DNA from: Phycisphaerae bacterium
GTDB lineage: Bacteria > Planctomycetota > Phycisphaerae > SM23-33
DNA length: 64,000 nucleotides
NCBI GenBank assembly: GCA_009783465.1
Contig: WRDM01000008.1
Location: 2,943-66,942, forward strand
Direction of reading: 5' to 3'
The notes under the pieces were generated by a model. It was given only the letters and a program-made list of their open reading frames with translations, did not search any database and was not told the DNA's origin. Position numbers and translations under genes: made by a program. This document shows positions 13,938-53,248 of the stretch, piece by piece. Positions within the stretch are counted from its first letter, which is position 1; every line of letters begins with the position of its first letter.

Positions 13938-14094
13938 CAGCCAATAGCCAGTAGCCAATAGCCAATAGGTACGGAACGATATTGGCGAAAGGCAATGAAT
14001 GTGGGAGTTGGCATAAATCTCAAACAGATCACGATCGTGTGATTTTCGACAGGTTTCACCATACCTATTGGCTACTGGCTGCTGGCTACTGGCT
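13938..14094. repeat. HS-A hairpin element, copy 3
   Basis: Arms 13938-13969 and 14061-14094. Loop blocks are the same as in copy 1. Confidence 0.85.
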
Positions 14095-16286: not shown

Positions 16287-16390
16287 GACTGTAGGCTGTA
16301 GGCTGAAGGCTGTAGGCTGTAGGCGCGGGCTTATGAAACATTAGGCCTAATCCTTCATAAGCCTGCCCCCACAGCCCACAGCCCACAGCC
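16287..16390. repeat. HS-C hairpin element
   Basis: 5 CTGTAGG-type units, core GGCGCGGGCTTATG...CATAAGCCTGCC, then CACAGCC x3. Confidence 0.85.
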
Positions 16391-16409
16391 TTACAACCAC
16401 GAGGAACGT

Positions 16410-16780: not shown

Positions 16781-16921
16781 GCGTCTGACGTGGCGAGGGC
16801 GTTTCGCCCTCGCGTCTCGCGGGCATCTTGCCCGCACCGGATAACGAAGTCGATTCGACGTTTTCCACTGACTAGGCCAATGGAGCACACAACGCGGGCG
16901 AGACGCCCGCGTCACGTGACG
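16781..16921. repeat. GC-rich palindromic element (GC-pal, CACGTGACGCGGGCG subtype), intergenic
   Basis: Three small hairpins: GGCGAGGGCG-TTT-CGCCCTCGC, GCGGGCA-TCT-TGCCCGC and GCGGGCG-AGA-CGCCCGC. Terminus CGTCACGTGAC. Confidence 0.75.
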
Positions 16922-16938: not shown

Positions 16939-18660
16939 ATGACAACAACCCTTTCCGAAGACGCCGACCGCGCGATGCCCGCCGTGACGCCGGCGGTGTT
17001 TGTGGACGGCCTGCTGCGCGAGGATCTGGTGTGCGTGCGGTGGCAGTGGCTTGGCGGGCCAGAGTTCGGGCGGGCCGTCGTGCAGGCCCGTGGCGGCGGC
17101 GACGGGCGGCTGCCGCGCGTCGAGGAGATCGACGTTCTGCCGCCCATCGGGGCCGACGTGTGCATCGCCGGCGAGCCGGGCGGGATGGCCGACACGGAGT
17201 TCATAGGCCGGGTCGCTGCACACGAACTCGTCGCCGGACCCGAGGGCGAACAACTTTCCGCCGTCGTCGAACACCAACTCAACGATGTATTGGCCGGCAC
17301 GATCACGTCGTCGTTTCACGTGGGTGTCGGCCAGGGGCTGGTGGAACTGCCGGAGGCGGCGATTCGTTTTGGCCCGCCCGACGGCCTGTGTTCGACGCAC
17401 ACGGTCCTGCACAACGGGCGAATGACGCCCGCGTTCTCTGCCGCCGCCGATGCCACCGTCTGGACCGTCGCCGACGCGCTGGCGTATCTGCTCGCGACGG
17501 CCGTGCCCTCCACCGTCAACGCGCCGACGCATGCGCAGCTTCAACTGCTGACGAACTTTCTGCCGCTGGACGACCTGAGCATCACCGGCAAGAGCGTGGC
17601 GGCGGCGTTGCAGGCGGTGGCGGAGTTGGCCGGCCTGTCGCTACGGGCCGCCCGAGAGAATGTGGGGCTGGTGTTCTACCGCGCTGGATTCGACGGGCGG
17701 GATGCAAATGTCGCCCTTCAGCCGGCAATGGAACCGTTCTCCGCCGAGGCGACGAATCTGTGGCGCGGGCGGATCGCTTTTCGCCGCCGCCCCAGCCGCC
17801 GCGGCGTGTTGATGCTCGGCGAACGCAGACGCTACGAACTCTCCACCGGCATGCTGCCCGGCTGGAACCCGGCAAGACACACCACGCGATGGCGCGACTG
17901 CGTCCGCAGCCTGTCGCCCAACTGGGCAGCCTACGGCGACGTGTATCGCAAATGGGTGCTCAACGAACACGCGTGGTACGGCGGTTCGCCGTGGAATTTG
18001 CCGACGTGGACCGGCGCGCAGGTCAACGCGAACCATTTTCTGCTTTGCCAGCCGCGACAATTTCTGCCGTGTCTTTCCGCCAACCAGGCCAACAAAAGCA
18101 TGGGCATCGTGGTGGAAGTCAGTTGGCCCAACAGCCCGTGGCGGCGTTGGCGCGGGCCGTTGTGGGTCAGCCGCGACGAGTGCTCGGTGTACCTGGGAGG
18201 CGACGCGTTGCCGGGAGAATTTTTCCAGGCCGCCGCTGCCGGCACGGCAGGCGTTCGCGTGACGGCGTGCGTCGACGCCGACGCGAGGCTGACGGCTTCG
18301 CTGCCCGGCGACGGCGGCGCGTGGATCGTCGTGCCGGCGCCGAAAGGCCAGGGACTGTGGCGGCAGATTCACAACAGCAGCGTTTTCCTTGGCGCCTCCG
18401 GCATGGGCCAACCGGGCGTCTGCGACGACAGCGAGGTCCTGTCCCGCCTGGCCACGCGACGCCAGGAACGCCCGCCCGATGCGGTCGATGCTGATTTCGA
18501 ACTGGCGTGGGTGGATCTGGGCGTCGGCGTCGGCGACGTCGTGGACCGCGTGGCCGGCCGCGAGATCGACCTGACCGCGTGGGCCGACGCCACGCCCAGC
18601 GTGAAGGCCGTTACGCACGATTTTCTCAAACAGACCACGCGCCTGGAGGTGCACGGATGA
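16939..18660 (+). CDS. phage tail/baseplate-like large protein
   Basis: SD AAGGAG. 573 aa. Largest ORF of the module, in the tail-gene position. Confidence 0.55.
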   Translation: MTTTLSEDADRAMPAVTPAVFVDGLLREDLVCVRWQWLGGPEFGRAVVQARGGGDGRLPRVEEIDVLPPIGADVCIAGEPGGMADTEFIGRVAAHELVAGPEGEQLSAVVEHQLNDVLAGTITSSFHVGVGQGLVELPEAAIRFGPPDGLCSTHTVLHNGRMTPAFSAAADATVWTVADALAYLLATAVPSTVNAPTHAQLQLLTNFLPLDDLSITGKSVAAALQAVAELAGLSLRAARENVGLVFYRAGFDGRDANVALQPAMEPFSAEATNLWRGRIAFRRRPSRRGVLMLGERRRYELSTGMLPGWNPARHTTRWRDCVRSLSPNWAAYGDVYRKWVLNEHAWYGGSPWNLPTWTGAQVNANHFLLCQPRQFLPCLSANQANKSMGIVVEVSWPNSPWRRWRGPLWVSRDECSVYLGGDALPGEFFQAAAAGTAGVRVTACVDADARLTASLPGDGGAWIVVPAPKGQGLWRQIHNSSVFLGASGMGQPGVCDDSEVLSRLATRRQERPPDAVDADFELAWVDLGVGVGDVVDRVAGREIDLTAWADATPSVKAVTHDFLKQTTRLEVHG

Positions 18661-19225: not shown

Positions 19226-19453
19226 AAAGCCACTAGCCACCAGCCACCAGGGCTTGCGTGACGCGTAGGTGAAGGAAAACCATTTGCCAGAGGGAAACGT
19301 TTCGTTGACTCGTTAACTGGTTAACTCGTTAATTCGGCGCCAAGTCAACCAGTTAACGAGTTAACCAGTTAACGAAAATGTTCCCTCGAATCTGCGACAT
19401 GATTTCACCGCCGAGCAGTCGAAAAACCTATGTGCTACGTAGCTGGTGGCTTT
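19226..19453. repeat. HS-B hairpin (GCCACTA/GCCACCA arms) containing a nested HS-E (GTTAAC) hairpin at 19290-19387
   Basis: Outer arms 19226-19252 and 19441-19453 (right arm short). The inner element is flanked by GAGGGAAAC / GTTCCCTC. Confidence 0.7.
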
Positions 19454-19470
19454 CTGAAGGGGACTTAACC

Positions 19471-20583
19471 ATGACGACAATCTATACGCCGCAGTGGGCC
19501 AATGCCAACTCGGCGGGTCTGGTGGATTCGAGCCGGTATATCCGTCGTTGTGATCTGGACGAGCTGGCCGCGGCGATCAATCGGCGGCGGCTGCTGGTGA
19601 TTCAGAATCCGTACGAGTACGGCCCGCTGCTGGATGCCCGTCCGTACGTCAGCCAGTATGCGATCGACGACAGCTCCGAGATGTCCGCGCAGGATCACTA
19701 CGCGATGGCCATGCGGCATGCGGTGATTAACAGAATTCTCTACGCGCAGCCAGGCCGCGACACCCTGCATCAGCCGGCATCGCCGAAGTCGATCACGTGG
19801 CTGTGGCCTCTGGCGGACGCCGACGAAAACAAGGCCATCACGACCTGGCTGGCGTCGCCGTCGTCGACCGCGGTAGGCCTGTTCAACCGGCTCAACGGTT
19901 CGGCCACGTGGACTCAGCCCACGCTGCACGCCAACGGCGTGGATTACGCCAAGGCCGTCCACGTCAACGAGCTTCGTCAGGCCCTCGAATGGCTGCGGCG
20001 AGGACGATGGGAACTTCCGATCTATTGGAATCTGGGGATGCTCTCGGAGGTTCCCGACACGGGGTGGTTTGGCGACAGCATCGCCAACACCGGTTCGGGC
20101 GAGTTGCGAAGTCTCGGCCTGTTGCGGGCGGTTCTTCTGGCGTCGGAAATTGGCGGCGGGATGGCGCCAAACGTGTACGGGCTTCACGGCGTGCGGGTGC
20201 TGTCGGCGTCGATTTCCATCGCGGTGAACACCGCGTGCGTCGTGGAGCTTCGCCAGGTGTTGCGTCCAATTTCGCTGGTGCGGACCGCGGGCGACTTGCC
20301 GACGTGGAATCACTATCGCGGCACGAGCAAGCTGGCATGGGCGCAGCCGGGTGGCATGGGGGCGGGCGACAGCGTGGCGATCGGCGGCGGCGCGACATCG
20401 GCGTCCCCCGGCTCGCCAGCCGTCTTCAGCGGCGGCGATCTGCTGCCGGTGTTGCAGGCAATGTTCGATCAGGAGGCGGGCCAGTTCTTCCTGCTCCGCC
20501 GCGTCGACGTCGCCAACACGATGGTCGACATCACCGGCACGACGTTGACGGTGGATTTCGAACTCACCTCGCCGCCGGCGTGA
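19471..20583 (+). CDS. phage tail-fibre-like protein
   Basis: ATG at 19471. Two 'xxNELRxAxxxLR'-type motifs ('DLDELAAAINRRR', 'HVNELRQALEWLRR'), which I have seen in phage fibre/structural proteins. Confidence 0.5.
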   Translation: MTTIYTPQWANANSAGLVDSSRYIRRCDLDELAAAINRRRLLVIQNPYEYGPLLDARPYVSQYAIDDSSEMSAQDHYAMAMRHAVINRILYAQPGRDTLHQPASPKSITWLWPLADADENKAITTWLASPSSTAVGLFNRLNGSATWTQPTLHANGVDYAKAVHVNELRQALEWLRRGRWELPIYWNLGMLSEVPDTGWFGDSIANTGSGELRSLGLLRAVLLASEIGGGMAPNVYGLHGVRVLSASISIAVNTACVVELRQVLRPISLVRTAGDLPTWNHYRGTSKLAWAQPGGMGAGDSVAIGGGATSASPGSPAVFSGGDLLPVLQAMFDQEAGQFFLLRRVDVANTMVDITGTTLTVDFELTSPPA

Positions 20584-20593
20584 AGATGCAGAT

Positions 20594-20805
20594 GCCACAA
20601 GCCACCAGCCACAAGCCACCAGGGCTTGTGGGGCGCGACGGTAAATTTTTCCATCGCGGTGGCGAGAGAGGTCCCGATGCTTCGCGGATACGGCGGTCAA
20701 GGCGGATAACTTACGTTTCGAGTCAGCGAAGCATCGGGACCTCTCTCTCTCGGACAAACGGAACGATTTTCCATTCATGCACCGCAAACCCTTGTCGCTT
20801 GTGGC
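20594..20805. repeat. HS-B hairpin with nested inner hairpin (20664-20748)
   Basis: Arms GCCACAAGCCACCAGCCACAAGCCACCAGGG / CCCTTGTCGCTTGTGGC. Inner hairpin GAGAGAGGTCCCGATGCTTCGC...GCGAAGCATCGGGACCTCTCTC. Confidence 0.8.
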
Positions 20806-20844
20806 TTTGTACCTGCGTGACGAACCACCCGAGAGGAGGGCAGC

Positions 20845-21159
20845 ATGATCAGCGTGATCACGGATTTGACGAGCATGGGGGCGGCGGGGGTGATGGGGGC
20901 GATGTGGCTGTGGGAGCGGCGTGCATCGGCCCAGCGGGAGCGGGAGTTGACCGAGTCGCACGGGCGGATCCTGCGGGACGAGCAGCGGTTGGACAAACTC
21001 ACGCACGTCGTGGAGCAGGCGACGGCGGCCATCACCCGGTTTCAGCAGACGCAGCAGGAGATGAGCGAGTTGATCAAGCACGTTCTTAAGGAGATTCATC
21101 ATGGCGGCACAACGGAAACTCGAAATCAGAAACCCGAAACTCGAAACAAACCCCAATGA
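20845..21159 (+). CDS. small N-terminal-TM coiled-coil protein (i-spanin/holin-like)
   Basis: SD GAGAGGAGGG. TM 'MGAAGVMGAMWLW' followed by a coiled coil. The last ~15 codons are encoded by a repeat arm. Confidence 0.45.
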   Translation: MISVITDLTSMGAAGVMGAMWLWERRASAQRERELTESHGRILRDEQRLDKLTHVVEQATAAITRFQQTQQEMSELIKHVLKEIHHGGTTETRNQKPETRNKPQ

Positions 21160-21342
21160 ACGGCGGAAGTTCGAAATCCAAAGCATGAAATCCGAAACAA
21201 ATTTCAAACAACAAATTCGAAACTCGAAACGGCGCCGCCAAACATCATGCCTGCGCTCCAAGGCGTCATGCGTTACCGTTTGGAATTTGCTGTTTGGGTC
21301 ATTGGGGTTTGTTTCGAATTTCGAATTTCGAATTTCGAATTT
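21114..21342. repeat. HS-F hairpin (GAAACNC / CGAATTT heptad arms)
   Basis: Left arm GGAAACTCGAAATCAGAAACCCGAAACTCGAAACAAACCCCAATGA. Right arm TCATTGGGGTTTGTTTCGAATTTCGAATTTCGAATTTCGAATTT. Confidence 0.75.
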
Positions 21343-21370
21343 ATCACGCCTGGCGATCGTGGCGTGTCTT

Positions 21371-21829
21371 ATGACGTTGCTGGGCGGCTGTGCGGCGCCG
21401 ACGGCCACGCTGGATTTGATTGCCGTCGCCCGCGCGGGATTGGCCGACGCGCGGGATGCGCAGCGGCAGTCGCACGAGACCTTGATACGGCAGTTCTCTC
21501 AGCAGCAGGCGGCGCTCGACGCGGCCTTCGACGCCGACGTCCGGCTGGCGGAGGCCGGGGCGATCCGCGACGCGCAGGGCAACCCCGTCGCGCTGGACGG
21601 GCGATGGGTGATCGCCGCCCGCAAAGGCTATGTGGCCGCCCGCGACGCCGTGGCACAACAGGCCGTTGCCGCGCAGGCCGCCCACGCCACGCGGCTGGAC
21701 AACCTCGCCGCCGCCGACGACGCGCTCCACATGGCCTGCACGCTCATCATCGAACAACAGGGCCTGAACATCCGCATGCGGCAGTACCTCCAGAAAGCCA
21801 CAAGCCACAAGCCACTAGCCACAAGGTAA
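21371..21829 (+). CDS. helical lipoprotein
   Basis: Lipobox 'LLGGC'. Start ambiguous (GTG 21359 or ATG 21371). The C-terminal 'KATSHKPLATR' is encoded by a repeat arm. Confidence 0.45.
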   Translation: MTLLGGCAAPTATLDLIAVARAGLADARDAQRQSHETLIRQFSQQQAALDAAFDADVRLAEAGAIRDAQGNPVALDGRWVIAARKGYVAARDAVAQQAVAAQAAHATRLDNLAAADDALHMACTLIIEQQGLNIRMRQYLQKATSHKPLATR

Positions 21830-21947
21830 GGATAGTCTCTGGCTAAAAGACAATGATCGCGGAAATGGCTGTACCTGTTCGATGAACCAGGATCGGCTGA
21901 TGGGTAACAGGTTTTGCCATACCTGGTGGCTAGTGGCTAGTGGCTTT
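21794..21947. repeat. HS-B hairpin
   Basis: Arms AAAGCCACAAGCCACAAGCCACTAGCCACAAGGTAAGG / CCATACCTGGTGGCTAGTGGCTAGTGGCTTT. Confidence 0.85.
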
Positions 21948-22265: not shown

Positions 22266-23504
22266 CTACGGCGTTTCGAGGAGATTCTGCCAGCAGCACT
22301 TGGCCGTGACGTTGTGGCGGCGGCATATGTCCAGCAGTGGGGCGGTGATGGCGGATTGGGCGGTTGGCGGCAGTCGCCAGCTTCCGCCGCGGAAGGTCAG
22401 GCGTTCGGGCGGCTGGGATTCGTGGGCGATGGATTCGTAGAGGGTTCGCATGTGTCGCATCGTGGGCGAGAGCGGGCGGTTTCGCGGCTGGACGATTTTG
22501 GCCGTGGAATATACGACGTGACGGACGCCGACCTCTTTGGCGAACGCGACCAGCCGTTCCAGGTCGTCGAGCGTTTGCGGCCATTCTCGTGACGCGGGCG
22601 TCTCGCCCGCGTTGTGTGTTCCATGGGCTTGGCCGTTGAAAGACGAAAAATCTTTTTCATCGGCTGACGGCGAGGGCTGGAAGCCCTCGCGACACGCGGG
22701 CGAGACGCCCGCGTCACGTTTTTCGGCACGCGGGAACAGCGGGTCGATTCGCAGGACCACGTCCACGCCGGCCTGGCGGAGACGGCGGATGCCTGCAACG
22801 CGGTCTTCAACGCTCGGCGCGCCGGGATCATAGAGTTTCCTGGCCTCGTCACGCCAGAACGCCAGGCTGACCTCGAGGAGAAAACCAGGCCGTGGCGAGT
22901 TGTGTTTGGACGCGTGGAGTTTTCGGAACAGTTCGTCGCAGCCCAACTCCACGGCCAGGCGTGGATTTTTCGTCAGGACGACGACGCTCGTGAATCGGTT
23001 GCGATGGTCGAGGATCCGCCGCAGCGTCAGTCGCGTGTGGCCGGCGTCGGCTTCGAGCGGTTGAAACGCGTCGGTGCTGTTGGACAGATGAATCGGCGCG
23101 GGCGGGACGTTGAAGCGTTCCAGATCGGCGAGGTCCTTATCGAGCGACCGTGCGAAATCCCGCTTCACGCCCGCTTCGGACGGCTCGTATGCGGCGGCGT
23201 AACAGTACTCGCACGCGTGCGAACAGCCGGTGTAGACGTTGACGCAGTAGCGATGCCCGCTGGGAAAATACCGTTGGCTGGCGAACGGACAATACCACTT
23301 GACGACGCGAGGCCGCGTGGGGCAGAGCGTCGGCTTTTTCGATCCGTGCGGCAGAAAATACAACGCCATGGCCGCCTGCTCTCGCGGCGTTTTTTTTTGC
23401 CAGGCCGGCGCGTATTTTTCGTCGATCCGCCGAACCAGCGACAGGCCCTCATCGATGTGGGTTGAGTTGATTGAGAACAGGCTCAATCCGCCTCCTCCGG
23501 CCAC
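22266..23504 (-). CDS. radical SAM protein (COG1533 'DNA repair photolyase'/SplB-like) carrying an in-frame repeat insertion
   Basis: 'NVYTGCSHACEYCYA' is the CxxxCxxC cluster. The central ~44 aa are encoded by the palindromic element 22588..22718. Confidence 0.8.
   Translation of the reverse strand: MAGGGGLSLFSINSTHIDEGLSLVRRIDEKYAPAWQKKTPREQAAMALYFLPHGSKKPTLCPTRPRVVKWYCPFASQRYFPSGHRYCVNVYTGCSHACEYCYAAAYEPSEAGVKRDFARSLDKDLADLERFNVPPAPIHLSNSTDAFQPLEADAGHTRLTLRRILDHRNRFTSVVVLTKNPRLAVELGCDELFRKLHASKHNSPRPGFLLEVSLAFWRDEARKLYDPGAPSVEDRVAGIRRLRQAGVDVVLRIDPLFPRAEKRDAGVSPACREGFQPSPSADEKDFSSFNGQAHGTHNAGETPASREWPQTLDDLERLVAFAKEVGVRHVVYSTAKIVQPRNRPLSPTMRHMRTLYESIAHESQPPERLTFRGGSWRLPPTAQSAITAPLLDICRRHNVTAKCCWQNLLETP
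22588..22718. repeat. GC-pal element inserted in frame in the radical SAM gene
   Basis: Termini CGTGACGCGGGCGTCTCGCCCGCG / CGCGGGCGAGACGCCCGCGTCACG. Internal GGCGAGGGCTGGAAGCCCTCGC hairpin. Confidence 0.8.
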
Positions 23505-25909
23505 CAGTCGCCGCCGGGGGGCATTTCACAGGTGCCGAGCGTTTGGAGGATGCCGCCCATGGCGGCCATGACGCCGACGAGGGCGCCCTCGTAGCCGCAC
23601 GGGTAGCCGTCCCATGTGAAGAATTCCGTTCCGGTGCGATAGCCGCCGGTGAACAGGCCTCGCTCGAAGCCGCGGTCGACGCCGCGGGCGATCGTTTCTG
23701 CCTCGGCGGCCATCCCGTACTTGCGCAGGGCGTAAAGAAAATAGGTAACCCAGAGCGGCGTGAGGCAGCCGTTGACGTAGATGCCGAAACTGTCCCAACT
23801 GTCCTGGCGGCGCGACTCCTGCACCGGCGGAATGTCCGAATGCGGCAGCGGGATCAGGTTGACCGGCAGGCCGTAGGTGAAGTAGTCCAGGCCCATATCC
23901 CGCATGTTGTTCCACAGGCCCGTCAGGGCGCGCTGGGCGGCGGCATCGTCCAGCAGGCCGAAACAGATCGGCAGAGCGGTGAACGCGACGAACGCGTGAT
24001 CGTGCAAGGCGCCGTCCTGGCTGCGCCAGCCGGCCACGAAACCGGTCTCCGGGTTGACCAGGACCTTCTGGAAGGAGGCCTTGATGCCGTCGGCCGCCGC
24101 CCTGGCCGTGGCCGACATCTCCGCGTCGCCGGCCGCCGTCGCCATCGCCTGAACATTTCGCAACCCGCGATACGCCAGGGCGTTCGTATACGCGTCGATG
24201 TGGCCGCTGCTGATGACGTCCCACCCCATGCAACTCCACAGCTTGGTGCCGCTGTTGCCGGTGAGCGTCCGGCAGCACACCAGGCCGGATTCCGTGTCAA
24301 TGTTCGCCAGCACGCGACGCGTCACTTGGAGGATCCACGGCCACATCTCGCCAAGCCAGGTCTTGTCGCGCTGGAGTTGGTACACCCGTCCGGAGGCGAT
24401 CAGCAGGCTGGGGTCGGCGTCGATGTACAGGTCGCGCACGTCGCCGTAGCCGGGCCCGCCCGTCAGCGCCATCTGGATCGTGTAACGCAGCAGATCCGCC
24501 GTGGTCGGCATGCCGGCGGGGGTGTCGGCCAGATGCGCCATGTCGGCTGGCGGATACTGCGACAGGTGGCAGTTGCACGAGACGTTGTTGTTGCTGTAGC
24601 CGCCGAACTCGGCACGGAACGTGTACGCCGACGCGAACGCACGCCGCATGCCCGCGGGAATGTCCCGCTCGGTTTTGCCGGGGGCCAACTTCGGCAGCAG
24701 CGGCGTCACCGCGAAGGACAGGTTGGCCTTGTACGTGCCCGGCGGAATCGTGAATAGGCCGTGCGGGTCCTCCGTGGCGCCGTCCAGGAGAATGCCCGCC
24801 CACGCGATGTTACGATTCCGCCAGGAGTCCACCTTCAGGCGGGCGTTCGTGCCCGACACCAGCACCGTGCCCCGGCCTGGCGCGTTGAGCATCGCCGGCA
24901 GCGACACCAGGCCGCACCGGCCTGTCGCGAACCGCGGCATGCCCAGCACGCCCGTCAGCGTCGTGCAGATGTCCCAGCAGAAGCGGAAGTCGTCCATGTC
25001 GGCCGCGACGATCGTTCGGTCCACGTGGCGGGTGATGTCGATGTCCACGCCCTTTTCGTTGACGGTGAAGCACAGGTCGAGTTTCATGCCAGGCCGGCTG
25101 CCGCTGATGTCGGTGTACACAACGCGGTTGCCCTCGACGCGTACCTGCCCGCCCATGGCCATGGCGGAGTAGTCGTCCTCAACAACGCGGAGCGACGGCC
25201 CGCTGAGCAGATCGCCGTGATAGCGGCTGGAACCGCTCCCGCTGCCGAAATCCCAGATCGTGTTTTTTGTCGTGAGGCTGGCCGTGTTTCCGAGACCGCG
25301 ATCGTCCCAGCCCAGGGCGGTGACCATCGGACGGCGCAGCGAGAAGGCGATGGCGAAGTGTGGGCTTTCGTAAAAGACCTGCGCGCCTTCGACGCGTGCC
25401 TGCATCCCCGGCGCCGCGGGCTTGCCGACGCCCGCGGGCGTCAGCGGCGGCTGATACGGCGGTTCGTAGGCGGGCCTCATCGTGCCGAGAAAATCGACCT
25501 TGTTCAGCGTGTCAAACGGAACGACGCGCTGGCTGGCCCAGAACTCCCCGTGCGACGGGCCGACGGGATACTCGTCGTCGCACACGAGCCGGAAAAGCCG
25601 CCCGCTCTCGGGGCCAGGCAGCGGGAGCTGGTGCGGCTGGGGATTCTCGGTGTCGAAGGCCGGCAGCACGCGGTCGAGGATTGTGACGAATTCCTGCGAC
25701 GATTCGCGAAAGACGTCAAGCCGTACGTGGCGAGGCAGCGCGATGCGGTAGGGCGTGTATCGCGTGCCGACCGGATGAATCACGATGGCATCGACGTCGG
25801 CGTCGCCGGCCATGCGGAAATATCGCACGCAGGCCAACCCGAGCGGCTGGCCTGGCTGAATATCAAACGCGGCGTTGGCGAAGGTCGTGAAGGCGAGCGG
25901 TGTTGTCAT
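23483..25909 (-). CDS. large hypothetical protein, C-terminal (alpha/alpha)6-barrel glycoside-hydrolase-like region (tentative)
   Basis: 808-aa ORF with ordinary composition. The C-terminal half resembles six-hairpin glycosidases by eye only. Confidence 0.55.
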   Translation of the reverse strand: MTTPLAFTTFANAAFDIQPGQPLGLACVRYFRMAGDADVDAIVIHPVGTRYTPYRIALPRHVRLDVFRESSQEFVTILDRVLPAFDTENPQPHQLPLPGPESGRLFRLVCDDEYPVGPSHGEFWASQRVVPFDTLNKVDFLGTMRPAYEPPYQPPLTPAGVGKPAAPGMQARVEGAQVFYESPHFAIAFSLRRPMVTALGWDDRGLGNTASLTTKNTIWDFGSGSGSSRYHGDLLSGPSLRVVEDDYSAMAMGGQVRVEGNRVVYTDISGSRPGMKLDLCFTVNEKGVDIDITRHVDRTIVAADMDDFRFCWDICTTLTGVLGMPRFATGRCGLVSLPAMLNAPGRGTVLVSGTNARLKVDSWRNRNIAWAGILLDGATEDPHGLFTIPPGTYKANLSFAVTPLLPKLAPGKTERDIPAGMRRAFASAYTFRAEFGGYSNNNVSCNCHLSQYPPADMAHLADTPAGMPTTADLLRYTIQMALTGGPGYGDVRDLYIDADPSLLIASGRVYQLQRDKTWLGEMWPWILQVTRRVLANIDTESGLVCCRTLTGNSGTKLWSCMGWDVISSGHIDAYTNALAYRGLRNVQAMATAAGDAEMSATARAAADGIKASFQKVLVNPETGFVAGWRSQDGALHDHAFVAFTALPICFGLLDDAAAQRALTGLWNNMRDMGLDYFTYGLPVNLIPLPHSDIPPVQESRRQDSWDSFGIYVNGCLTPLWVTYFLYALRKYGMAAEAETIARGVDRGFERGLFTGGYRTGTEFFTWDGYPCGYEGALVGVMAAMGGILQTLGTCEMPPGGDWWPEEAD

Positions 25910-25924
25910 GGGGACCTCGTTTCA

Positions 25925-26105
25925 AACGTAGCACCGGGCGTCCCGCCCGTGAGTCGCATGGGCGTCTCGCCCATGCGACGCCCCAGCATGGGCGTCGTGG
26001 AGTTCGCGTGGGCGGTATAAGGGTTTCGCGTCACAAAATTTCAGCCAGCCGCTGCCACGGGCGAGACGCCCGTGGGACTCATGGGCGGGACGCCCATGCT
26101 ACGTT
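25925..26105. repeat. GC-pal element (GTAGCACGGGCG subtype), intergenic
   Basis: Arms of about 50 nt, each made of two CA(C/T)GGGCG-NNN-CGCCC(G/A)TG mini-palindromes. Termini AACGTAGCA / TGCTACGTT. Confidence 0.8.
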
Positions 26106-26115
26106 ACGCCCCGCG

Positions 26116-28428
26116 TCACGCCGATTTCGGCATCGCCGGGCTCAGATGCGTCGGGATGGCGGTGCCTTCGTTGAGTTTTCGGCGGTTGGCGATGAGGGCT
26201 TCGACGATCAGCAGGAGGATGACGAGGGGCAGGAATTTGTCCCACCACGGGGCGCCCTGGCTGGCTTCGGCGGCGCGTTCCTGGACGTCCTTGAGGGACG
26301 AGCCGACGAAGACGGTGTTGAAATCGCGGTCGTCGCAGGCGTTTTGCATTTCCTCGGTGCCCAGGGCGAGCAGGAAGGATTCGTCGCCGTCGGGGTTGAC
26401 GGCGAAGGCGCCTTCGGATCGTCGGGTGGCCAGGTCGTCGGGGGCGTCCTGGAGGGTCCAGGTGTAGACGCCCGGCAGGGCGTTTTCCTTCGACAGTCGG
26501 ACGGTGTATCCGGTGGCGTTGTCGAGTTCGGCGGTCAGGGGCAGGATTTTTTTGTCGGGCGTGGTGACGGCGAAGGTGACGGTATTGGGCCTGGAGGAGT
26601 CGGCGCGGAGCGGGCCTGTGCTGATGGGCACGTTCGTCTGCGCGAGGAAGATTTGCTGGGACTGCATTTGTTGCGGCGCCGCCAGGGCCATGCGATAGAG
26701 CATGGAGAAGAAGACGGGGCTTCCGCCGGCACAGAAGTTGGACCATCTCGGCGAGGCGGTGGTGGGGAAGACGACGGCGCGGCCCTTGCCGAAGGGCCTG
26801 GTGGCCACGAGGGGCGATCCGCTGCGGAGGGTCATGATGGCCGAGGCGGGCGCGACGACGTCTTCGATGGTGTAGTATCGGTTGACCATCATGACGCGGT
26901 AGCTTTCGGCGTTGGGGTACAGGCCGGCCAGGAAGGGGCTGGTCAGGTCCATGAGTTCGACGTCCTCGGCCATCGCGCCCGGCCCGACGTCGCCCTGGGC
27001 TCCGCCGATTTTCCCCGGCAGCAGCGGCCCCATGCCGGCGATGCCCAGGTCGTCGTAGAACATCTTATTGTAATTCGCCACGTCGCACTCGGGGCCCAGG
27101 AAGAACAAGGCCGTGCCGCCGGCGTCCACGAAGTCGATGACGCACTGCGCCTGCTCGTCGGTGAAGTGGTCCACCTCGTTGAGCAGCAGCATCGACGCGT
27201 TGGTCAACGCCTCCGGGCCGAAATCCGCGATGTCGATGACGTCCGGCTCGATCGACCACGGGCGATTGACGTTTCGCAGCCCGTCCAGGGCGGGCTTGAG
27301 ATAGGTCGTGCCGTCCAGGCCGCTGCCGTCCTCGCCCGCGTGGCCTCTGACGATGACCGCCCGCACGCGATCGCCGATCTCCAGCGCGAAGTACCTCCGG
27401 TTGTCGGTGTCGAGCTGGTCCACCAGCGAATTGGCGTTGCCGGCTTCGCTGATGATGGCCACGCTCACGCTGCCCGAGAACATGTCCGGCCGCGTGAACG
27501 TGTGGCGGAACTGCCGCGTCTCCTTGCCCATCGGCGGCAGGGTGATCGTCTGGCGGTCGGAGGCCGACATGCCCTCGATGTGCAGGTCGACGTTGACGCG
27601 GATGTTTTCGTTGGTGGAGTTGGTCAGCGTGACGTTGAACTGGATGGGTTGATCGGCGATCCGCCGCCCGGCGATTTCCAGATCGGTCACGCCGACGTTC
27701 ACGGCGTTGGGTTGGCCGACATTGACGATGAGCACGTGGACGCCGTTGTCGCGGGCCAGTTGGAGCACGTTGTCTTCGGCTTCGCCGAGCAGATCGTCGA
27801 TGCTTTCGCGTTGCAGGTCGGTGAGGATGTAGACGGTTTTTTCGGGCGTGGATCCGACGTTGGACAACTGGGCGACGGCCTCGCGCACGCGGGCGGCGAT
27901 GGGCGTTCCCTTGCCGTAGCCGACCGTCATGGTTTTGAGCGGCTCTTCGATGCTCTTGATGTTGCCGGTGAGGTTGACGGATCGTTTGTCGTCGTGGGTC
28001 AGCAGCAGGGCGGCTTCCTTGGGGCGTTTTCGTTCGTCGTCGTTGAAGAGCAGTTCGCGGGCTTCGGTGCGGGCCAACTCCAGGCGGGAGCCTTTTTCCT
28101 CCAGCGTGTTCATGGAGTAGCTGTTGTCGATAATGACGACGCAGGCGGCGTTGTTGGCGTTGAACCACTCCTTGCCGCCCTTGAAAAGCGGCTCGGACAC
28201 CACGATGGCCAGCAGCCCCAGCATGAGCGCGCGGATGATCAGCAGCAGCCAGTGCTGCAAGTGCCGCCGCCGGGCGGTCTTTTCCATCGAGAGCTTCAGG
28301 AACCGCAGCGTCGGGTAGTACACTTCCTGCGCGCGGACCGACGAGAGCAGGTGCAGCACAAACGGAATCGCCGCGGCCAGCAGGCCCAGCAACATCGCCG
28401 GGGCGCCAAATTGTAAGCCTTCAAACAT
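26116..28428 (-). CDS. BatA-N-terminal/VWA-domain membrane protein
   Basis: 'IPFVLHLLSSVRAQEVYYPTLRFL' N-terminal domain. MIDAS-like 'IDNSYSM'. C-terminal TM segment. Confidence 0.8.
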   Translation of the reverse strand: MFEGLQFGAPAMLLGLLAAAIPFVLHLLSSVRAQEVYYPTLRFLKLSMEKTARRRHLQHWLLLIIRALMLGLLAIVVSEPLFKGGKEWFNANNAACVVIIDNSYSMNTLEEKGSRLELARTEARELLFNDDERKRPKEAALLLTHDDKRSVNLTGNIKSIEEPLKTMTVGYGKGTPIAARVREAVAQLSNVGSTPEKTVYILTDLQRESIDDLLGEAEDNVLQLARDNGVHVLIVNVGQPNAVNVGVTDLEIAGRRIADQPIQFNVTLTNSTNENIRVNVDLHIEGMSASDRQTITLPPMGKETRQFRHTFTRPDMFSGSVSVAIISEAGNANSLVDQLDTDNRRYFALEIGDRVRAVIVRGHAGEDGSGLDGTTYLKPALDGLRNVNRPWSIEPDVIDIADFGPEALTNASMLLLNEVDHFTDEQAQCVIDFVDAGGTALFFLGPECDVANYNKMFYDDLGIAGMGPLLPGKIGGAQGDVGPGAMAEDVELMDLTSPFLAGLYPNAESYRVMMVNRYYTIEDVVAPASAIMTLRSGSPLVATRPFGKGRAVVFPTTASPRWSNFCAGGSPVFFSMLYRMALAAPQQMQSQQIFLAQTNVPISTGPLRADSSRPNTVTFAVTTPDKKILPLTAELDNATGYTVRLSKENALPGVYTWTLQDAPDDLATRRSEGAFAVNPDGDESFLLALGTEEMQNACDDRDFNTVFVGSSLKDVQERAAEASQGAPWWDKFLPLVILLLIVEALIANRRKLNEGTAIPTHLSPAMPKSA

Positions 28429-28430
28429 TC

Positions 28431-28550
28431 GTTAACTCGTTAACTGGTTGATTCGTTAACTCGCTAACGGGTCGACTAGCTAACTGATTGACTAGTTAAC
28501 TAGTTAACTAGTTAACTAGTTAACTAAAGCGTTTCCCTCGAACCACGGGT
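28431..28550. repeat. HS-E element (GTTAACNN octad arrays) with a right-hand GTTTCCCTCGAAC clamp
   Basis: GTTAACTC GTTAACTG ... then GTTAACTA x4. Arm pairing is imperfect. Confidence 0.65.
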
Positions 28551-29493: not shown

Positions 29494-29806
29494 AGCCACA
29501 AGCCACAAGCCACCAGCCACAAGGTATTCGAAATTCGGTGCTCCCATCGTAGCAAAATTTTCCGCGATTGGCATGCCGAATAGCGAATACTTTCAGGGCC
29601 ATCGCATCGTAAAAGGCCCATTTTTCGGCTGTAGGCTGTGGGCTGTAGGCTGTAGGTTGATTTTCCTTTGCGAAACATCGGTCGCAAAGGCATGTCTCCT
29701 ACAGCCTACAGCCCACAGCCTACAGCCTTTTCGCGAAAAAACGCGGAAATTTAGATGCGATGGCCCTGGCGAATACCTTGTGGCTAGTGGCTGGTGGCTT
29801 GTGGCT
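29494..29806. repeat. four-level nested hairpin (HS-B outer, HS-C inner)
   Basis: Level 1: 29494-29527/29770-29806. Level 2: CAGGGCCATCGCATC/GATGCGATGGCCCTG. Level 3: CTGTAGG arrays 29626-29727. Level 4: CCTTTGCGA..TCGCAAAGG. Confidence 0.85.
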
Positions 29807-30380
29807 GGGTCTTCAGGAAAAACCGCACCGCCATGTCGCCGTACGCCTTGACCCGTGTGCAGGTCAACGGCCCGAGGGTGTCCGGGACGTCGGCGTGTTC
29901 GTCGGTTCGCAGGACGACGCAGCCGTCGTTTTCGGACAGTTTCGGCGCCAGCGGCATGAAAATCGCGTCAGCCGCCCGCTGCCAGTCCCACTGCCGCGCG
30001 TCGGCGTAGGGCGGATCGACGAAGGCGACGTCCACCGGGGCCTGCACCTGCGTCAGCCACTCCGTCAGCCGGGCCTCCACGTCGCCGCGCCAGACCGTCG
30101 CCCGGTCCGTCGCGCGCAGGTCGCGCAGATTCCGCGCCAGCCGCTCCAGAACGCGCGGATCCTTCTCGGCAAAGAAACACCGCGCCGCGCCACGCGATAA
30201 ACACTCAATCCCCATCGTGCCCGTGCCGCAGTACAGGTCAATCACCGTCTGGCCATGCAATTCCTCGCCCAGCATGGCAAAGAGCGACTTCTTCACCAGT
30301 CCCGTCACGGGTCGGGTGATACTCTTGCCAGGCGGCGGCAAAATCTCCCGCCCACGAAATTCACCAGCCAGGATGCGCAT
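29784..30380 (-). CDS. rsmD: 16S rRNA (guanine966-N2)-methyltransferase
   Basis: 'RPVTGLVKKSLFAML', 'DLYCGTGTMGIECLSRGA' and 'FVDPPY' motifs. The last 7 codons lie in a repeat arm. Confidence 0.8.
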   Translation of the reverse strand: MRILAGEFRGREILPPPGKSITRPVTGLVKKSLFAMLGEELHGQTVIDLYCGTGTMGIECLSRGAARCFFAEKDPRVLERLARNLRDLRATDRATVWRGDVEARLTEWLTQVQAPVDVAFVDPPYADARQWDWQRAADAIFMPLAPKLSENDGCVVLRTDEHADVPDTLGPLTCTRVKAYGDMAVRFFLKTQPQATSH

Positions 30381-30430: not shown

Positions 30431-30748
30431 AAAGCCAGTAGCCAATAGCCAGTAGCCAATAGGTATGGAACGTCTCTGGTTATGAGGTAGTGTAAGCGGG
30501 AATGGTTACGCCTGTCGGGGTGGTTGAGTTTCCTGCACGACGAAAGCATCTGGTTTTGTGAGGAAAACAACCGATTATCCTCCCCGGTCTCGTACGGCAG
30601 TGCCGGTTCTTCCGCGCGAGACCGGGGAGATCAATCGGTTGTTTTCCACATCGAATCCGCACAGGCCAGCAACACGACAGTCACCACAAAATCATCCATC
30701 ATACCTGCTGGCTACTGGCTGGTGGCTATTGGCTTTGTTCCTTCGAAC
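30431..30748. repeat. HS-A hairpin with nested I-family hairpin (30562-30647)
   Basis: Arms 30431-30461 and 30701-30736. Inner hairpin GGAAAACAACCGATTATCCTCCCCGGTCTCG...CGAGACCGGGGAGATCAATCGGTTGTTTTCC. Confidence 0.8.
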
Positions 30749-31862: not shown

Positions 31863-32022
31863 CCCCCCGGCCCTCGTGATTCGAGGGTATCCATGAGCGT
31901 ATGGCAAGCAACGCAGACATCATTCGTCGCAAGTATGGTGTTTTCCCGGAGCTTCCTCTGAGTCGCAGCGCCTGTAGTAAAAAGTAGCGGTGCCTTCCGC
32001 GTCTCTGTGGTACATTCCCCCC

Positions 32023-34431
32023 ATGCCACAACACTACATCGACGCCATTCTGAAGTATCTCGCCGACCGCAGTTATCGCCCCGTCAAGCCGCGGCAGTTT
32101 GCGAGGCAGCTTGGCATTGACGACAACGAGTACGGCGCGTTTCGCGAGGCCGTCAAGCAGTTGCGTGACGAAGGCCGCGTCGTGCTCGGCGCCAACAACG
32201 CGCTGACGCTGCCGGAAATTTCCTCGCAAATCACGGGGTTTTACAGGCCGAATCCTCGCGGGTTCGGCTTCGTCATCCCGGAGACGCCCAACGCGCACGG
32301 GGATTTGTTCATTCCCGAAGGCTCCGCCGGCACGGCGATGGCGGGGGACCTGGTGGTCGCCCGCGTGTTTCATCAAGGCAAAAAAGCGGGCAAGGCCATG
32401 TATGCCGGCGAGATCATTCAGATCGTTCGTCGCGGGCGGAACCGCTTCGTGGGCACGATGGCGCGGGCCGACGACGGCACGTGGTTCGTCCTGCCCGACG
32501 GGGCGGCGATGACCCAGCCGATCGTCGTTCGCGACGTCTCCACCGCCAGCCCGAAGGCGGGCACGAAAGTCGTCGTCGAAATCACCGAGTATCCCAAGCC
32601 CGGCCGGCTGCCCATCGGCGTCATCGTCGAGCGGCTCGGCGAGGCCGGCGAACTTGACGTGGAAACGCGGGCCGTCATCCGCGCCCATGGTCTGTCGGAC
32701 GAATGGCCCGCCGCCGCGCTGACCGACGCCCGCGACGCCATCGCGGCGTTCGACCGTAGCACGGGCGTCTCGCCCGTGCCGTCTCGCGCCGCAAAGGAAA
32801 CGTCCGCTGTACGGACGGACCGCCACGGGCAAGATGCCCGTGCTACGGGTCGCGAGGACCTCACCGCGATGACCGTCGTCACGATCGATCCGCCCGACGC
32901 GCGGGATTACGACGACGCGATATCGATTCAGCCGGGGCCGGACGGCTCCGTTGTGCTGGGCGTGCACATCGCCGACGTGTCGCATTTCGTCCGCGAAGGC
33001 TCGGCGTTGGATCGCGAAGCCCGGCAGCGCGGCAACAGCACGTACTTCCCGCGACGCGTCGTGCCCATGCTGCCGGAAATTCTCTCCAACGGCGTGTGCA
33101 GTCTCCAGGCCGGCCAACGGCGATTCTGCAAGAGCGTGTTCATCCGTTACGACGACGAGGGCAACGTGCTCGGCACGCGATTCGCCGACAGCGTGATCCG
33201 CTCCGCCGGGAGGCTGACGTACATCGAGGCGCAGGGCATCATCGACCGTGGTGCGGGCATCTCACGTGACGCGGGCATCTTGCCCGCGTTGATCACGCCT
33301 GCGCCGTCAGCCAATGTTGACGGCAAATCCACGCACAACGCGGGCGAGACGCCCGCGTCACGTGAGACGCCACGGTCGGGCGGCTTCGCGCCTGGCGTCG
33401 CTGAACTCGTCCTTGCGATGAACGTGCTGGCGAAAACCATCGAAGCCCGTCGCCGCCGGGCCGGCATGCTGCACCTGGACCTGCCCGAAGTCGAACTGGT
33501 CTTCGACGAACAGGATCACGTCGTCGACGCGACGCCCCGCGACGATTCCTACACGCACACCGTCATCGAAATGTTCATGGTCGAAGCCAACGAAGCCGTC
33601 GCGACCCTGCTCGATCGGCTCGGCAGGCCTTGCGTGCGGCGAATCCACCCTCAGCCCGACGACGCCGGCGCCAAGCAGCTCCGCACGTTCGTGCACGCGT
33701 GCGGCCACAAGCTGCCGGGCAACCTCTCGCGGCGGGACATGCAGGAACTGCTCCGCGCCGTCCGCGGCAAGCCCGAAAGTTACGCGGTGAATCTGGCCCT
33801 GCTCAAAACGTTCGAGCAGGCGGTGTACAGTCCGATGACGGTCGGCCATTTTGCGCTGGCCAGCGAACATTACTGCCATTTCACGAGCCCGATCCGCCGC
33901 TACGCGGACCTGACGGTGCACCGCCTGCTGGGCGAGCACATTCGCGGCACGCTCGAAAGCAGGCCCGGCGAGGACAGGAGCGAACTGGTCCACCTCGGCG
34001 AAAATCTCACCGCGACGGAGCGCCGCAGCAAGGCGGCAGAGGATGAACTGCGCGAGGTGCTGATTCTCGAATTTCTCGCCACCAAAATCGGCGAGGATTT
34101 CGACGGCGTGGTGACGGGCGTGACGAGTTTCGGCCTGTTCGTGCAGTCGATGCGGTTCCTCATCGAGGGCCTGGTCCGGCTGGAGGATCTTGGCGACGAC
34201 TGGTGGGAAGTGGATCCGAAAACCGGCACGGTGGTCGGGGAGCGTACGCGGCGGAAGATACGGCTCGGCGACATGATGCGCGTCCGCATCGCCAGCGTGG
34301 ACATCGCCAAACGCCAACTCAACCTCTCGCCGACACGCGAGCGAAAGAGCGGACGGGTGACGAAAAAGGTGAAAAAACCAAACAAAAACAAGAAAACCTT
34401 CACATCTCGCAAGAAACGTCGAGGGCGGTGA
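32023..34431 (+). CDS. rnr: ribonuclease R with two in-frame repeat insertions
   Basis: 'YRPVKPRQFARQLG' N-terminus, RNB core 'TIDPPDARDYDDAISI' and 'HFALASEHYCHFTSPIRRYADL', S1 domain and a basic tail. Confidence 0.9.
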   Translation: MPQHYIDAILKYLADRSYRPVKPRQFARQLGIDDNEYGAFREAVKQLRDEGRVVLGANNALTLPEISSQITGFYRPNPRGFGFVIPETPNAHGDLFIPEGSAGTAMAGDLVVARVFHQGKKAGKAMYAGEIIQIVRRGRNRFVGTMARADDGTWFVLPDGAAMTQPIVVRDVSTASPKAGTKVVVEITEYPKPGRLPIGVIVERLGEAGELDVETRAVIRAHGLSDEWPAAALTDARDAIAAFDRSTGVSPVPSRAAKETSAVRTDRHGQDARATGREDLTAMTVVTIDPPDARDYDDAISIQPGPDGSVVLGVHIADVSHFVREGSALDREARQRGNSTYFPRRVVPMLPEILSNGVCSLQAGQRRFCKSVFIRYDDEGNVLGTRFADSVIRSAGRLTYIEAQGIIDRGAGISRDAGILPALITPAPSANVDGKSTHNAGETPASRETPRSGGFAPGVAELVLAMNVLAKTIEARRRRAGMLHLDLPEVELVFDEQDHVVDATPRDDSYTHTVIEMFMVEANEAVATLLDRLGRPCVRRIHPQPDDAGAKQLRTFVHACGHKLPGNLSRRDMQELLRAVRGKPESYAVNLALLKTFEQAVYSPMTVGHFALASEHYCHFTSPIRRYADLTVHRLLGEHIRGTLESRPGEDRSELVHLGENLTATERRSKAAEDELREVLILEFLATKIGEDFDGVVTGVTSFGLFVQSMRFLIEGLVRLEDLGDDWWEVDPKTGTVVGERTRRKIRLGDMMRVRIASVDIAKRQLNLSPTRERKSGRVTKKVKKPNKNKKTFTSRKKRRGR
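32756..32846. repeat. GC-pal element (GTAGCACGGGCG subtype) in frame in rnr
   Basis: GTAGCACGGGCGTCTCGCCCGTGC ... CCACGGGCAAGATGCCCGTGCTAC. Confidence 0.8.
33261..33366. repeat. GC-pal element (CACGTGACGCGGGC subtype) in frame in rnr
   Basis: CTCACGTGACGCGGGCATCTTGCCCGCGTT ... AACGCGGGCGAGACGCCCGCGTCACGTGAG. Confidence 0.8.
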
Positions 34432-43605: not shown

Positions 43606-43651
43606 TTCCGCGGGGCAATCGCATGGGTTTGGATCGTGTTCCCGTTGTGGA

Positions 43652-45498: not shown

Positions 45499-45638
45499 CG
45501 TCGCATGGGCGTCCCGCCCATGAGTCCCACGGGCATCTTGCCCGTGGTGGCCTGTCTGGAGTACAAACGGTTCGTCTACAGGCTGGCGTTGCATGGGCGA
45601 GACGCCCATGCGACTCACGGGCAAGATGCCCGTGCTAC
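45499..45638. repeat. GC-pal element (GTAGCACGGGCG subtype), intergenic
   Basis: GCATGGGCGTCCCGCCCATGAGTCCCACGGGCATCTTGCCCGTGG ... GCATGGGCGAGACGCCCATGCGACTCACGGGCAAGATGCCCGTGCTAC. Confidence 0.8.
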
Positions 45639-45649
45639 GACGGAGCGAT

Positions 45650-47687: not shown

Positions 47688-47705
47688 ATCCAGCGACAAG
47701 CGAAG

Positions 47706-51958: not shown

Positions 51959-53248
51959 ATGACCAACGCGCCCTGCAAACAAAATAGCGACGGACTTTCG
52001 TATCTTCCGCCAGGAGCATTATATCTCCATGTGCCGTTCTGTCTGGCCAAGTGTCGATATTGCGATTTTTATTCCCGTCCCATCCGCGCCGCCGACGCGG
52101 ACCGTTACACTGCCGCCGTTACGCGGCAGTTGCGACGGCTATGTAGCACGGGCGTCTCGCCCGTGAGTCGCATGGGCGTCCCGCCCATGCAAAACCAACC
52201 TGTCGGCGAAACGTGCGACCATGGCCAGATCGCTATGGGCGAGACGCCCGTGCTGCGGACGCCTCTGGCGACGGTGTTCCTCGGCGGCGGCACGCCGACG
52301 GCCCTTGGCGGGGAGCGGCTTGGGGACATTTTTCGCGCCGTCGCGCCGCTGTGCGACGCCCGCACGGAAATCTCCGTCGAAGCCAATCCCGGCGCGTTCG
52401 ACGGGCCGCTGGCGCGTCGGCTGATCGCGGCGGGCGTCAATCGCGTGAATATCGGCGTGCAGTCGTTTCAAGGCGACGAATTGGCCGTGCTGGGCCGTCT
52501 GCACGACGCCGCGGCGGCGAGGCACGCGGTGGCCCTCGCGAGGGACGCGGGGTTCGCGAATGTCGGCATCGACCTCATGTACGGCCTGCCGGGCCAAACG
52601 TTGGCGTCCTGGCGGGATTCGCTGCGGCAGGCGTTCGATCTGGGCGTGGAGCACCTCAGCGGCTACGCGTTGAGCATCGAGCCAGGCACGCCGCTGCACG
52701 CCGATTGGCAGGCCGGCGCGGTCGAGGAGATGGACGAAACCCTGCAACGTGAGATGTACTACGCGATGATCGAGCAGGCCGGCGGGGCGGGGTTGGCACA
52801 CTATGAAATGTCCAATTTCGCCAGGCCCGGTTTTGCGTGCCGACACAATCTGACGTACTGGCACAATTGGCCGTACCTTGGCCTTGGCCCGGCGGCGGCG
52901 AGTTACATGGCCGGCGTGCGTCGCACGAATCGCCCGGACGCCGACGCGTGGGCGACGGCGGTGCTGGCGGATCGGCCCCCGCCCGCGGACGAAGAGCGGC
53001 TGCCGCGGCATCTCCGCATGGCCGAGACGTTGATGCTAGGCCTTCGCCTGACGGCGGGCGTGGATCGGTCCGCCTTCGCGTCGCGTTTTGGCCTGGACGC
53101 ATTGGCCGCCTTCCCGCACTCCCTGCCACGCTACGCCGCGCAAGGCGCACTGCTCATCGAGGCCACGCACATCCGCCTGGCGAGTTGGGCGCTGTTCGGC
53201 GCGGACACGATTTTGGCGGATATCGTCGAGGAGGGGCGGCGAGAGTAG
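51959..53248 (+). CDS. hemW: radical SAM heme chaperone/coproporphyrinogen-oxidase-like protein with in-frame repeat insertion
   Basis: 'LYLHVPFCLAKCRYCDFYS', 'VFLGGGTPT' and 'NIGVQSF'. About 38 extra aa between the cluster and GGGTP are encoded by 52143..52256. Confidence 0.8.
   Translation: MTNAPCKQNSDGLSYLPPGALYLHVPFCLAKCRYCDFYSRPIRAADADRYTAAVTRQLRRLCSTGVSPVSRMGVPPMQNQPVGETCDHGQIAMGETPVLRTPLATVFLGGGTPTALGGERLGDIFRAVAPLCDARTEISVEANPGAFDGPLARRLIAAGVNRVNIGVQSFQGDELAVLGRLHDAAAARHAVALARDAGFANVGIDLMYGLPGQTLASWRDSLRQAFDLGVEHLSGYALSIEPGTPLHADWQAGAVEEMDETLQREMYYAMIEQAGGAGLAHYEMSNFARPGFACRHNLTYWHNWPYLGLGPAAASYMAGVRRTNRPDADAWATAVLADRPPPADEERLPRHLRMAETLMLGLRLTAGVDRSAFASRFGLDALAAFPHSLPRYAAQGALLIEATHIRLASWALFGADTILADIVEEGRRE
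52143..52256. repeat. GC-pal element (GTAGCACGGGCG subtype) in frame in the hemW-like gene
   Basis: GTAGCACGGGCGTCTCGCCCGTGAGTCGCATGGGCGTCCCGCCCATGC ... TATGGGCGAGACGCCCGTGCTGC. Confidence 0.8.

Follow-up and report, generated by a model that had tools for sequence, protein, structure and literature searches.

A probable GC-rich REP doublet in frame within a radical SAM gene of a Phycisphaerae bacterium

Palindromes that reside within coding sequence have been described in Rickettsia. RPE-1 and its relatives (Ogata et al. 2000) are palindromes of 105-146 bp that form a long stem-loop. RPE-1 is found between genes and is also fused in frame into conserved genes, in 19 ORFs, and the proteins tolerate it. 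Translation and enzyme activity were shown experimentally in the case of gmk (PMC2229807, PMC3733652). The units of RPE-4 and RPE-6 are of the CGTC class, while RPE-1 is a distinct long palindrome (PMC3733652). REPs with a GTAG or CGTC tag occur inside ORFs in many species, and most of all in Opitutus terrae (Di Nocera et al. 2013, PMC3733652). About 70 ORFs of O. terrae have in-frame REPs, either as singles or as inverted dimers (families GTAG-17, GTAG-18 and GTAG-19), and these encode 7-53 aa. The peptides include GTGVPPV, GTGVSPV, TGGTPVP, MGGTPMPR and HGRDARAT, and the hosts include HI0933-family and GH2 proteins (PMC3733652). The tag is GTAG, or a degenerate GYAG, GTRG or GTGG, at one end (PMC3733652). 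REPINs are mobilised by RAYTs and have been described as essentially extragenic (Bertels and Rainey 2011, PMC3116915).

We consider a stretch of 64,000 nucleotides from a Phycisphaerae bacterium, referred to here as the window. An element at 22588..22718 on the minus strand is read in frame in a radical SAM gene and encodes ...RDAGVSPACREGFQPSPSADEKDFSSFNGQAHGTHNAGETPASR.... The initial annotation described it as about 131 bp long with inverted termini, and that description holds. The arms (22588-22612 and 22694-22718) are 25 nt each, lie 81 nt apart and are 100% complementary, the right arm being the exact reverse complement of the left. The left arm is itself a GTGA-tagged REP hairpin with an 8-bp stem, ACGCGGGCG-TCT-CGCCCGCGT. 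A third hairpin, GCGAGGGC-TGGAA-GCCCTCGC, is found inside the element at 22670..22690 and adjoins the right arm. The predicted fold of 22588-22718 is -89.4 kcal/mol as RNA (z -10.1) and has a z of -10.4 as DNA. A REPIN is two inverted REPs with a spacer that are able to form one long hairpin, and this is the arrangement seen here.

We argue that the element would be a pair of inverted GC-rich REP hairpins of the GTAG-tagged superfamily, with a degenerate GTGA tag and a spacer of about 80 nt containing the third hairpin. A copy would have landed in the DNA for a variable surface loop of a radical SAM enzyme, replacing part of the native loop and leaving the frame intact. It would then be transcribed and translated within the protein as about 37 net residues of disordered loop. 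Taken as a whole, this account of a non-autonomous REPIN-like insertion, in frame in a functional radical SAM gene, is in our judgement very probable.

The arms have the stem-loop of the GTAG/CGTC-tagged REP superfamily, which is a GC-rich stem of 6-9 bp with a small loop. The units are also interspersed in many copies and form inverted dimers, as in that superfamily. Their stems are 7-8 bp and their loops 3-5 nt, and the hairpin is also seen singly and in clusters of 2-6 that mix hairpin types. The tag on the arms is GTGA(C) and not GTAG, related inserts have GTGG, and GTGA is unlisted among the degenerate tags of PMC3733652. Canonical GTAG tags are present on sister units (GTAGCACGGGCG...) at 32756, 52143, 26098 and 45634.

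The 24-mer terminus of the element occurs five times in the window (16893-16916, 22588-22611, 22695-22718, 33265-33288 with 2 mismatches, and 33339-33362), against 0.00 expected from 100 dinucleotide-preserving shuffles. The same type of element had been recognised at 16781-16921 and at 33261-33366 in rnr. This is supported by a full-length alignment of those two copies, the radical SAM element and a copy from a related assembly (L001), which has a mean column identity of 77% and a nearly invariant CACACAACGCGGGCGAGACGCCCGCGTCACG end. The copy at 16781..16921 is intergenic, upstream of ORF 16939..18660, and its 'a' reading frame is closed by stops. Altogether the window has 20 GGGC...GCCC hairpins whose stems are at least 6 bp, and there are seven clusters of at least two. 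Four of these are in frame in genes (the radical SAM gene, RNase R twice and a HemW-like gene) and three are intergenic. The other intergenic clusters are at 25933..26103, between two minus-strand genes (stop 26116, start 25909), and at 45499..45639, where four REP hairpins separate a sugar-transferase ORF that ends at 45496 from an ATP-grasp ORF.

One can imagine that the extra segment is a native, lineage-specific loop whose likeness to other loci is chance GC-rich low complexity. The loop between RIDPLFPR and PQTLDDLE does vary in length and sequence among orthologues. However, identical 24-mer arms and a homologous spacer are found between genes at one place and within an unrelated gene at another, where 0 chance matches are expected. 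In the nearest empty orthologue the loop is 12 aa long and has a YQxxGLPQ motif that is lacking in the window. A native loop is refuted by the 24-mer copies elsewhere, the empty-site comparison and the full-length alignment of the family, and we give it practically no credence.

The host gene is at 22266..23504 on the minus strand and encodes an SPL/COG1533-type radical SAM protein of 412 aa. An intact CxxxCxxC cluster and an unbroken frame had been claimed for it with the strand left unstated, and both are there: the cluster is C94-x3-C98-x2-C101 and the ORF is intact. The product matches Pfam Radical_SAM (3e-9), is weakly similar to the PA0069/Rv2578c families of NCBIfam, and has a predicted fold like spore-photoproduct lyase and PFL-activase. 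A sequence search of the PDB with this protein gave no match. An identical protein is annotated at NCBI in a Phycisphaerae MAG.

The insert occupies about aa 262-305, between the invariant RIDPLFPR and PQTLDDLE. Homologues of the protein number 759 and are mostly 362-378 aa long. In an alignment of 27 sequences the position is a variable loop, and the extra residues are present only in the window protein and in P0002; the other 25 orthologues are without the segment. The initial annotation had proposed this comparison and held that a homologous peptide in distant orthologues would speak against an insertion. No such peptide was seen in the orthologue alignment. It also proposed a structure prediction to see if the segment is a surface loop. 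An AlphaFold model based on the 27-sequence alignment has a pTM of 0.81. Confidence is low at both ends of the chain, over a few residues at 73-82 and over 264-302, which is the insert, and pLDDT below 50 is confined to aa 264-302. These residues sit between a strand (249-252) and a helix (312-325), both well modelled, so the insert is predicted to be a disordered surface loop. If the insert is translated, its predicted tryptic peptides include EGFQPSPSADEK and DFSSFNGQAHGTHNAGETPASR.

Could the gene be a pseudogene, or the insert an artefact of a repeat-rich assembly? The window is from a short-read MAG, and palindromic multi-copy repeats are error-prone in assembly. However, the 1.2-kb ORF is intact and dN/dS is 0.16, 0.14 and 0.12 for the three pairs among the window protein, P0002 and P0003 (dS 0.53-0.90, loop left out). 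The low dN/dS means that purifying selection was kept in both element-bearing lineages. In L001, which was assembled independently from a different sample, the same codon position also holds an element, again in frame. The same pattern recurs in 12 further intragenic cases, with Pfam domains in phase flanking the element (one of them, L046, has no Pfam domain). A frameshift or stop was to have counted against the insertion, and what is found is a frame kept in two independent assemblies. We regard a pseudogene or artefact as very unlikely. Judging from purifying selection, the host enzyme probably stays functional. The insert would be translated in vivo and would be neutral.

The radical SAM site is known in empty and filled form. 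L002 (protein P0003) is the empty site and has a loop of 12 codons (QSVNYQQVGLPQ). The window loop is 49 codons, a net gain of 37 over L002. About 44 codons had been attributed to the element; the peptide is indeed present at about aa 262-305, but the net gain is 37 codons. The element's 131 bp are not divisible by 3, and the loop is 147 nt as compared to 36 nt at the empty orthologous site. L001 (protein P0002) is a filled site with the same left junction as the window, GAA[A/G]AA|CGTG[A/G]CGCGGGCG. The YQxxG part of the loop, which is typical of the family (YQxxGLPQ), is missing from both filled alleles. The window protein and P0002 are sisters, with 84% identity versus 81% to P0003 when the loop is left out.

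The two filled alleles differ in orientation. Compared with the window's element in gene sense, the L001 element aligns as the reverse complement, with 60/84 matching positions in the centre, versus 49/93 and a score of 0 in the same sense. By alignment, then, one radical SAM site has the element in opposite orientations in two lineages, and it is in frame in both. Both orientations are open because the frame RDAGVSPA...AGETPAS has no stop on either strand of the element. The arms differ at 2/48 nt between the window and L001, versus 17.8% for the gene (binomial P = 0.005). The flanking codons common to both alleles and the loss of YQxxG in both support one insertion followed by inversion in situ. 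However, the centre of the L001 element is 78% identical to the window's intergenic copy (16781-16921) and 71% to the window's radical SAM copy, which weakens a single insertion with a simple inversion. The history may have been an inversion in situ, ectopic conversion or overwriting via the shared arms, or independent insertion at a permissive site. In RNase R independent hits at one linker do occur. Special selection for invertibility was considered and rejected: flips in silico keep the ORF open in 9/13 cases, which is the background of 63-69% open frames.

The RNase R gene (31990..34431, plus strand, 813 aa) has two in-frame REP doublets. At site 1, in the CSD2-RNB linker (about aa 250-287), a GTAG-tagged doublet at 32752..32875 encodes STGVSPVPSRAAKETSAVRTDRHGQDARAT. 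At site 2, in the RNB domain (about aa 417-476), the insert at 33261..33366 is a 106-bp copy of the radical SAM element's family and encodes SRDAGILPALITPAPSANVDGKSTHNAGETPASRE. Both are read on the plus strand. Solved RNase R structures and most orthologues lack both segments. Overall there are three insertion sites in RNase R, and REP blocks are present or absent at two of them among genes that are 92-94% identical (L065, L066 and L067, from related Phycisphaerae). The blocks are bounded by GTGGCA...TGCCAC, and filled sites have 11-22 nt of native sequence replaced. The sequence lost at site 3 includes codons of the conserved RPPED motif. It must be noted that the native sequence at site 3 (CACGATCGCCTCGCGCCCG) is loosely like a REP hairpin, and this resemblance hints at homology-assisted insertion. 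The remaining intragenic cluster of the window is at 52143..52250 on the plus strand, in the HemW/HemN-like radical SAM ORF 51959..53248. The Radical_SAM domain is split by this cluster, which encodes STGVSPVSRMGVPPMQ...MGETPVLR.

Relatives of the element were also examined in other assemblies. Among the matches listed, the 21-mer of the arm is multi-copy in two planctomycete MAGs, on at least about 27 contigs of CAZYDC01 and at least 8 of DASRRR01. Among the matches listed for CAZYDC01, 9/22 clusters are deep in long ORFs. In eight of the nine, Pfam domains flank or enclose the element and stay in phase. The CAZYDC01 hosts are SMC, GcvT, an HI0933-like protein, a CheB/CheR-PAS kinase, a PD-(D/E)XK nuclease, LipB/LipA, rSAM/NirDL and GH2. 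L046, a span of 1293 codons with an element in the 'a' frame and no Pfam domain, was counted as intragenic. L057 and L019 were candidates for intragenic copies outside the 'a' frame and were rejected, as they have no Pfam support and L057 is the antisense shadow of a real minus-strand gene.

Some CAZYDC01 spans join two genes. In L010 (5268-7154) the C-terminus of LipB, a REP doublet and the N-terminus of LipA are in one stop-free frame, with LplA-B_cat at aa 38-230, the element at 239-283 and Radical_SAM beginning at aa 337. The two genes appear to be fused across the element. rSAM+NirDL (L013) and GcvT+SHMT (L026) form comparable long spans. Separately, among the matches listed, the exact 21-mer hairpin ACGCGGGCGAGACGCCCGCGT occurs singly in MAGs of many unrelated phyla, including Chloroflexota, Acidobacteriota, Verrucomicrobiota and Proteobacteria. 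These copies are often inside longer perfect stems (L005-L009, L012, L014, L015, L020-L025 and others). They may go back to a common REP origin or to convergence, as of terminators.

The initial annotation had called for a count of intragenic copies and of their reading frames. With one hairpin definition and one exact 21-mer, and in metagenome assemblies throughout, 13/29 clusters are intragenic in the window and the related MAG CAZYDC01. Downstream domains are in phase across the element in the 13 (L046 again being the one without a Pfam domain). Of 30 intragenic hairpins, 29 put GGC in codon phase and so encode xGVSPx or xGETPx (P ~3e-13 versus one-third). Hairpins of one cluster are non-independent in this test; counted by cluster, 13/13 enter in the favoured frame. 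Stop codons alone fail to explain the bias because most frames of these elements, about 63-69%, are stop-free. We suggest that the other frames, whose peptides are arginine-rich, are selected against. Insertions would survive only if they change the length by a whole number of codons, are read without a stop and have their stems in the frame of small, neutral residues. This favoured frame would be A-G-V-S-P-A / A-G-E-T-P-A and not one that gives arginine-rich peptides.

The frame bias also bears on whether the insert is removed after transcription or translation, as an intron, an intein or by translational bypass. An RNA hairpin of -89 kcal/mol would be a strong obstacle to the ribosome and might favour processing or bypass. 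However, removal would not need a stop-free, in-phase segment in a single preferred frame (29/30 hairpins), and the intergenic copy at 16781-16921 does have stops in that frame. Rfam matched no intron or other RNA family at 22588-22718. There are no intein motifs either, and 44 aa is too short for an intein. Removal therefore has very little to recommend it, and an insert that is read as part of the protein is the reading we keep.

Three empty/filled comparisons, of the radical SAM site and of sites 1 and 3 of RNase R, showed no target-site duplication, and 11-36 nt of native sequence are missing at every filled site. Since there is no duplication and native sequence is missing, a simple cut-and-paste or copy-in model does not match. 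The element could instead be a classical MITE, derived from an IS by deletion and moved by a DDE transposase that acts on the terminal inverted repeats. In favour of this, the terminal repeats are perfect over 25 nt, the length is near 130 bp and the transcript would be a long stem-loop, all of them general MITE properties (PMC2229807). However, the three comparisons without a target-site duplication do not fit a MITE. Each supposed terminal repeat is moreover a self-complementary REP hairpin that is also found singly or in mixed clusters of 2-6, and that is the behaviour of REPs and BIMEs rather than of IS ends. We consider a MITE improbable. On the REPIN-like account, a RAYT-type HUH tyrosine transposase would mobilise the element in trans, or copies would recombine with one another. 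A crude regex for the HUH plus Y..NP motifs in six-frame translations found no RAYT-like ORF in the window and 68 loci (about 0.5 Mb), which is a weak negative. Because neither a RAYT transposase nor a target-site duplication was found, we can only infer the mechanism.

A bolder scenario is that REP doublets are a major and actively maintained source of protein-loop insertions in this Phycisphaerae clade, a heritable and recombining system of loop cassettes. This is suggested because near half of the clusters are in frame in genes and because the arms have 2/48 differences at a host dS of ~0.5. We think it doubtful, though less so than a MITE origin. If it were true, resident copies would be flipped or overwritten through their shared arms to give alternative loop peptides at one site (window versus L001). 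REP doublets would even bridge neighbouring genes into fusions (LipB-element-LipA, L010), and intragenic REPINs could possibly have RNA-level effects on genes such as rnr.

How, then, does this locus compare with the described systems? It is closest to the O. terrae REPs. Both are from the PVC superphylum, both have a GC-rich hairpin of the CACGGGCG..CGCCCGTG type, and both are found in frame as singles and inverted dimers. Some of the peptides are nearly identical (GTGVSPV, TGGTPVP, MGGTPMP, HGRDARAT) and the hosts overlap in the HI0933 family and GH2. They differ in that the phylum and class here are Planctomycetota and Phycisphaerae, and in that the GCGGGCG stem and GTGA tag belong to the subfamily of the radical SAM element. 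The doublets here also have long spacers, about 55-165 nt, in which the sequence is conserved and a third hairpin lies. Frame use is different too: 29/30 hairpins use one frame here, whereas O. terrae uses several (WHGRPAR and VARASRP as well as HGRDARAT).

The resemblance to RPEs is one of behaviour only, in that the element resides in frame and stop-free in conserved genes where the fold tolerates it. There is no sequence relationship, and the element does not belong to the Rickettsia-specific RPE family. RPEs are AT-rich and come from reduced intracellular genomes, whereas this element is GC-rich and in a genome of free-living type. RPE translation is experimental (gmk), whereas translation here is predicted. 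It resembles REPINs in having many copies per genome and a conserved REP part. However, REPINs are essentially extragenic, while copies here are inside genes, and REPINs are defined by a single-copy RAYT gene flanked by REPs, for which the motif search of the window and 68 loci was negative.

The initial annotation proposed RPE-like behaviour as an independent example in an unrelated GC-rich lineage. The in-frame insertion stands, but the novelty was overstated given O. terrae (PMC3733652). This is no new class of biology, as the principle was set for Rickettsia in 2000 and for other phyla in 2013. We found no description of in-frame REPs for Phycisphaerae in the literature. What is new is this class and a GTGA-tag subfamily with long spacers, for a behaviour already published in Rickettsia, Opitutus and others. 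In detail, the case adds a site known in empty, filled and flipped form, a frame bias that is close to absolute, and the repeated colonisation of RNase R. The case documents GC-rich REP-type palindromes colonising coding sequence on a large scale in Planctomycetota, and a frame bias this close to absolute would cleanly mark selection on the peptide that is encoded. Inserts of this kind lengthen proteins, break up Pfam domains, give rise to spurious HGRDARAT-type hypothetical proteins and can fuse neighbours in MAG annotations.

Repeats affect the annotation of the window in other ways. The REP clusters at 45593-45640 and 25900-26100 read as N-terminal extensions of listed ORFs (MGETPMRLTGKMPVLR... 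and ...HGRDARGTHGRDAHAT...). They illustrate how repeats make over-extended starts and HGRDARAT-type hypothetical proteins in annotations. Short tandem arrays of the AAACTCGAAAT type at 21116-21230 (and on the opposite strand at about 19465-21408) produce long ORFs that are spurious, with EFEIRNSKFETNPN among their peptides, and such arrays likely mislead gene callers.

There are also other palindromic families. A second family, unrelated to the REP hairpins, consists of arrays of 3-4 AGCCA[CA]NA octamers with inverted GTGGCT arrays about 85-105 nt away. Its arms are 30-36 nt and about 90% complementary, and it is often at gene boundaries (13939-14094 and 21802-21946; also 2-160, 4048-4191, 29494-29808, 30433-30736, 42586-42708, 47704-47894 and 49216-49441). 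In a third family, heptamer/octamer arrays of GGCTGTAGG flank a GCGCGGGCTTATGAA...TTCATAAGCCTGC hairpin with 46-nt arms that are 83% complementary (16300-16391; also 11870-11964, 43646-43711 and 48496-48561). Octamer arrays of GTTAACTNG at 19288-19387, 28415-28538 and 38648-38755 are perfect local palindromes, GTTAAC being self-complementary.
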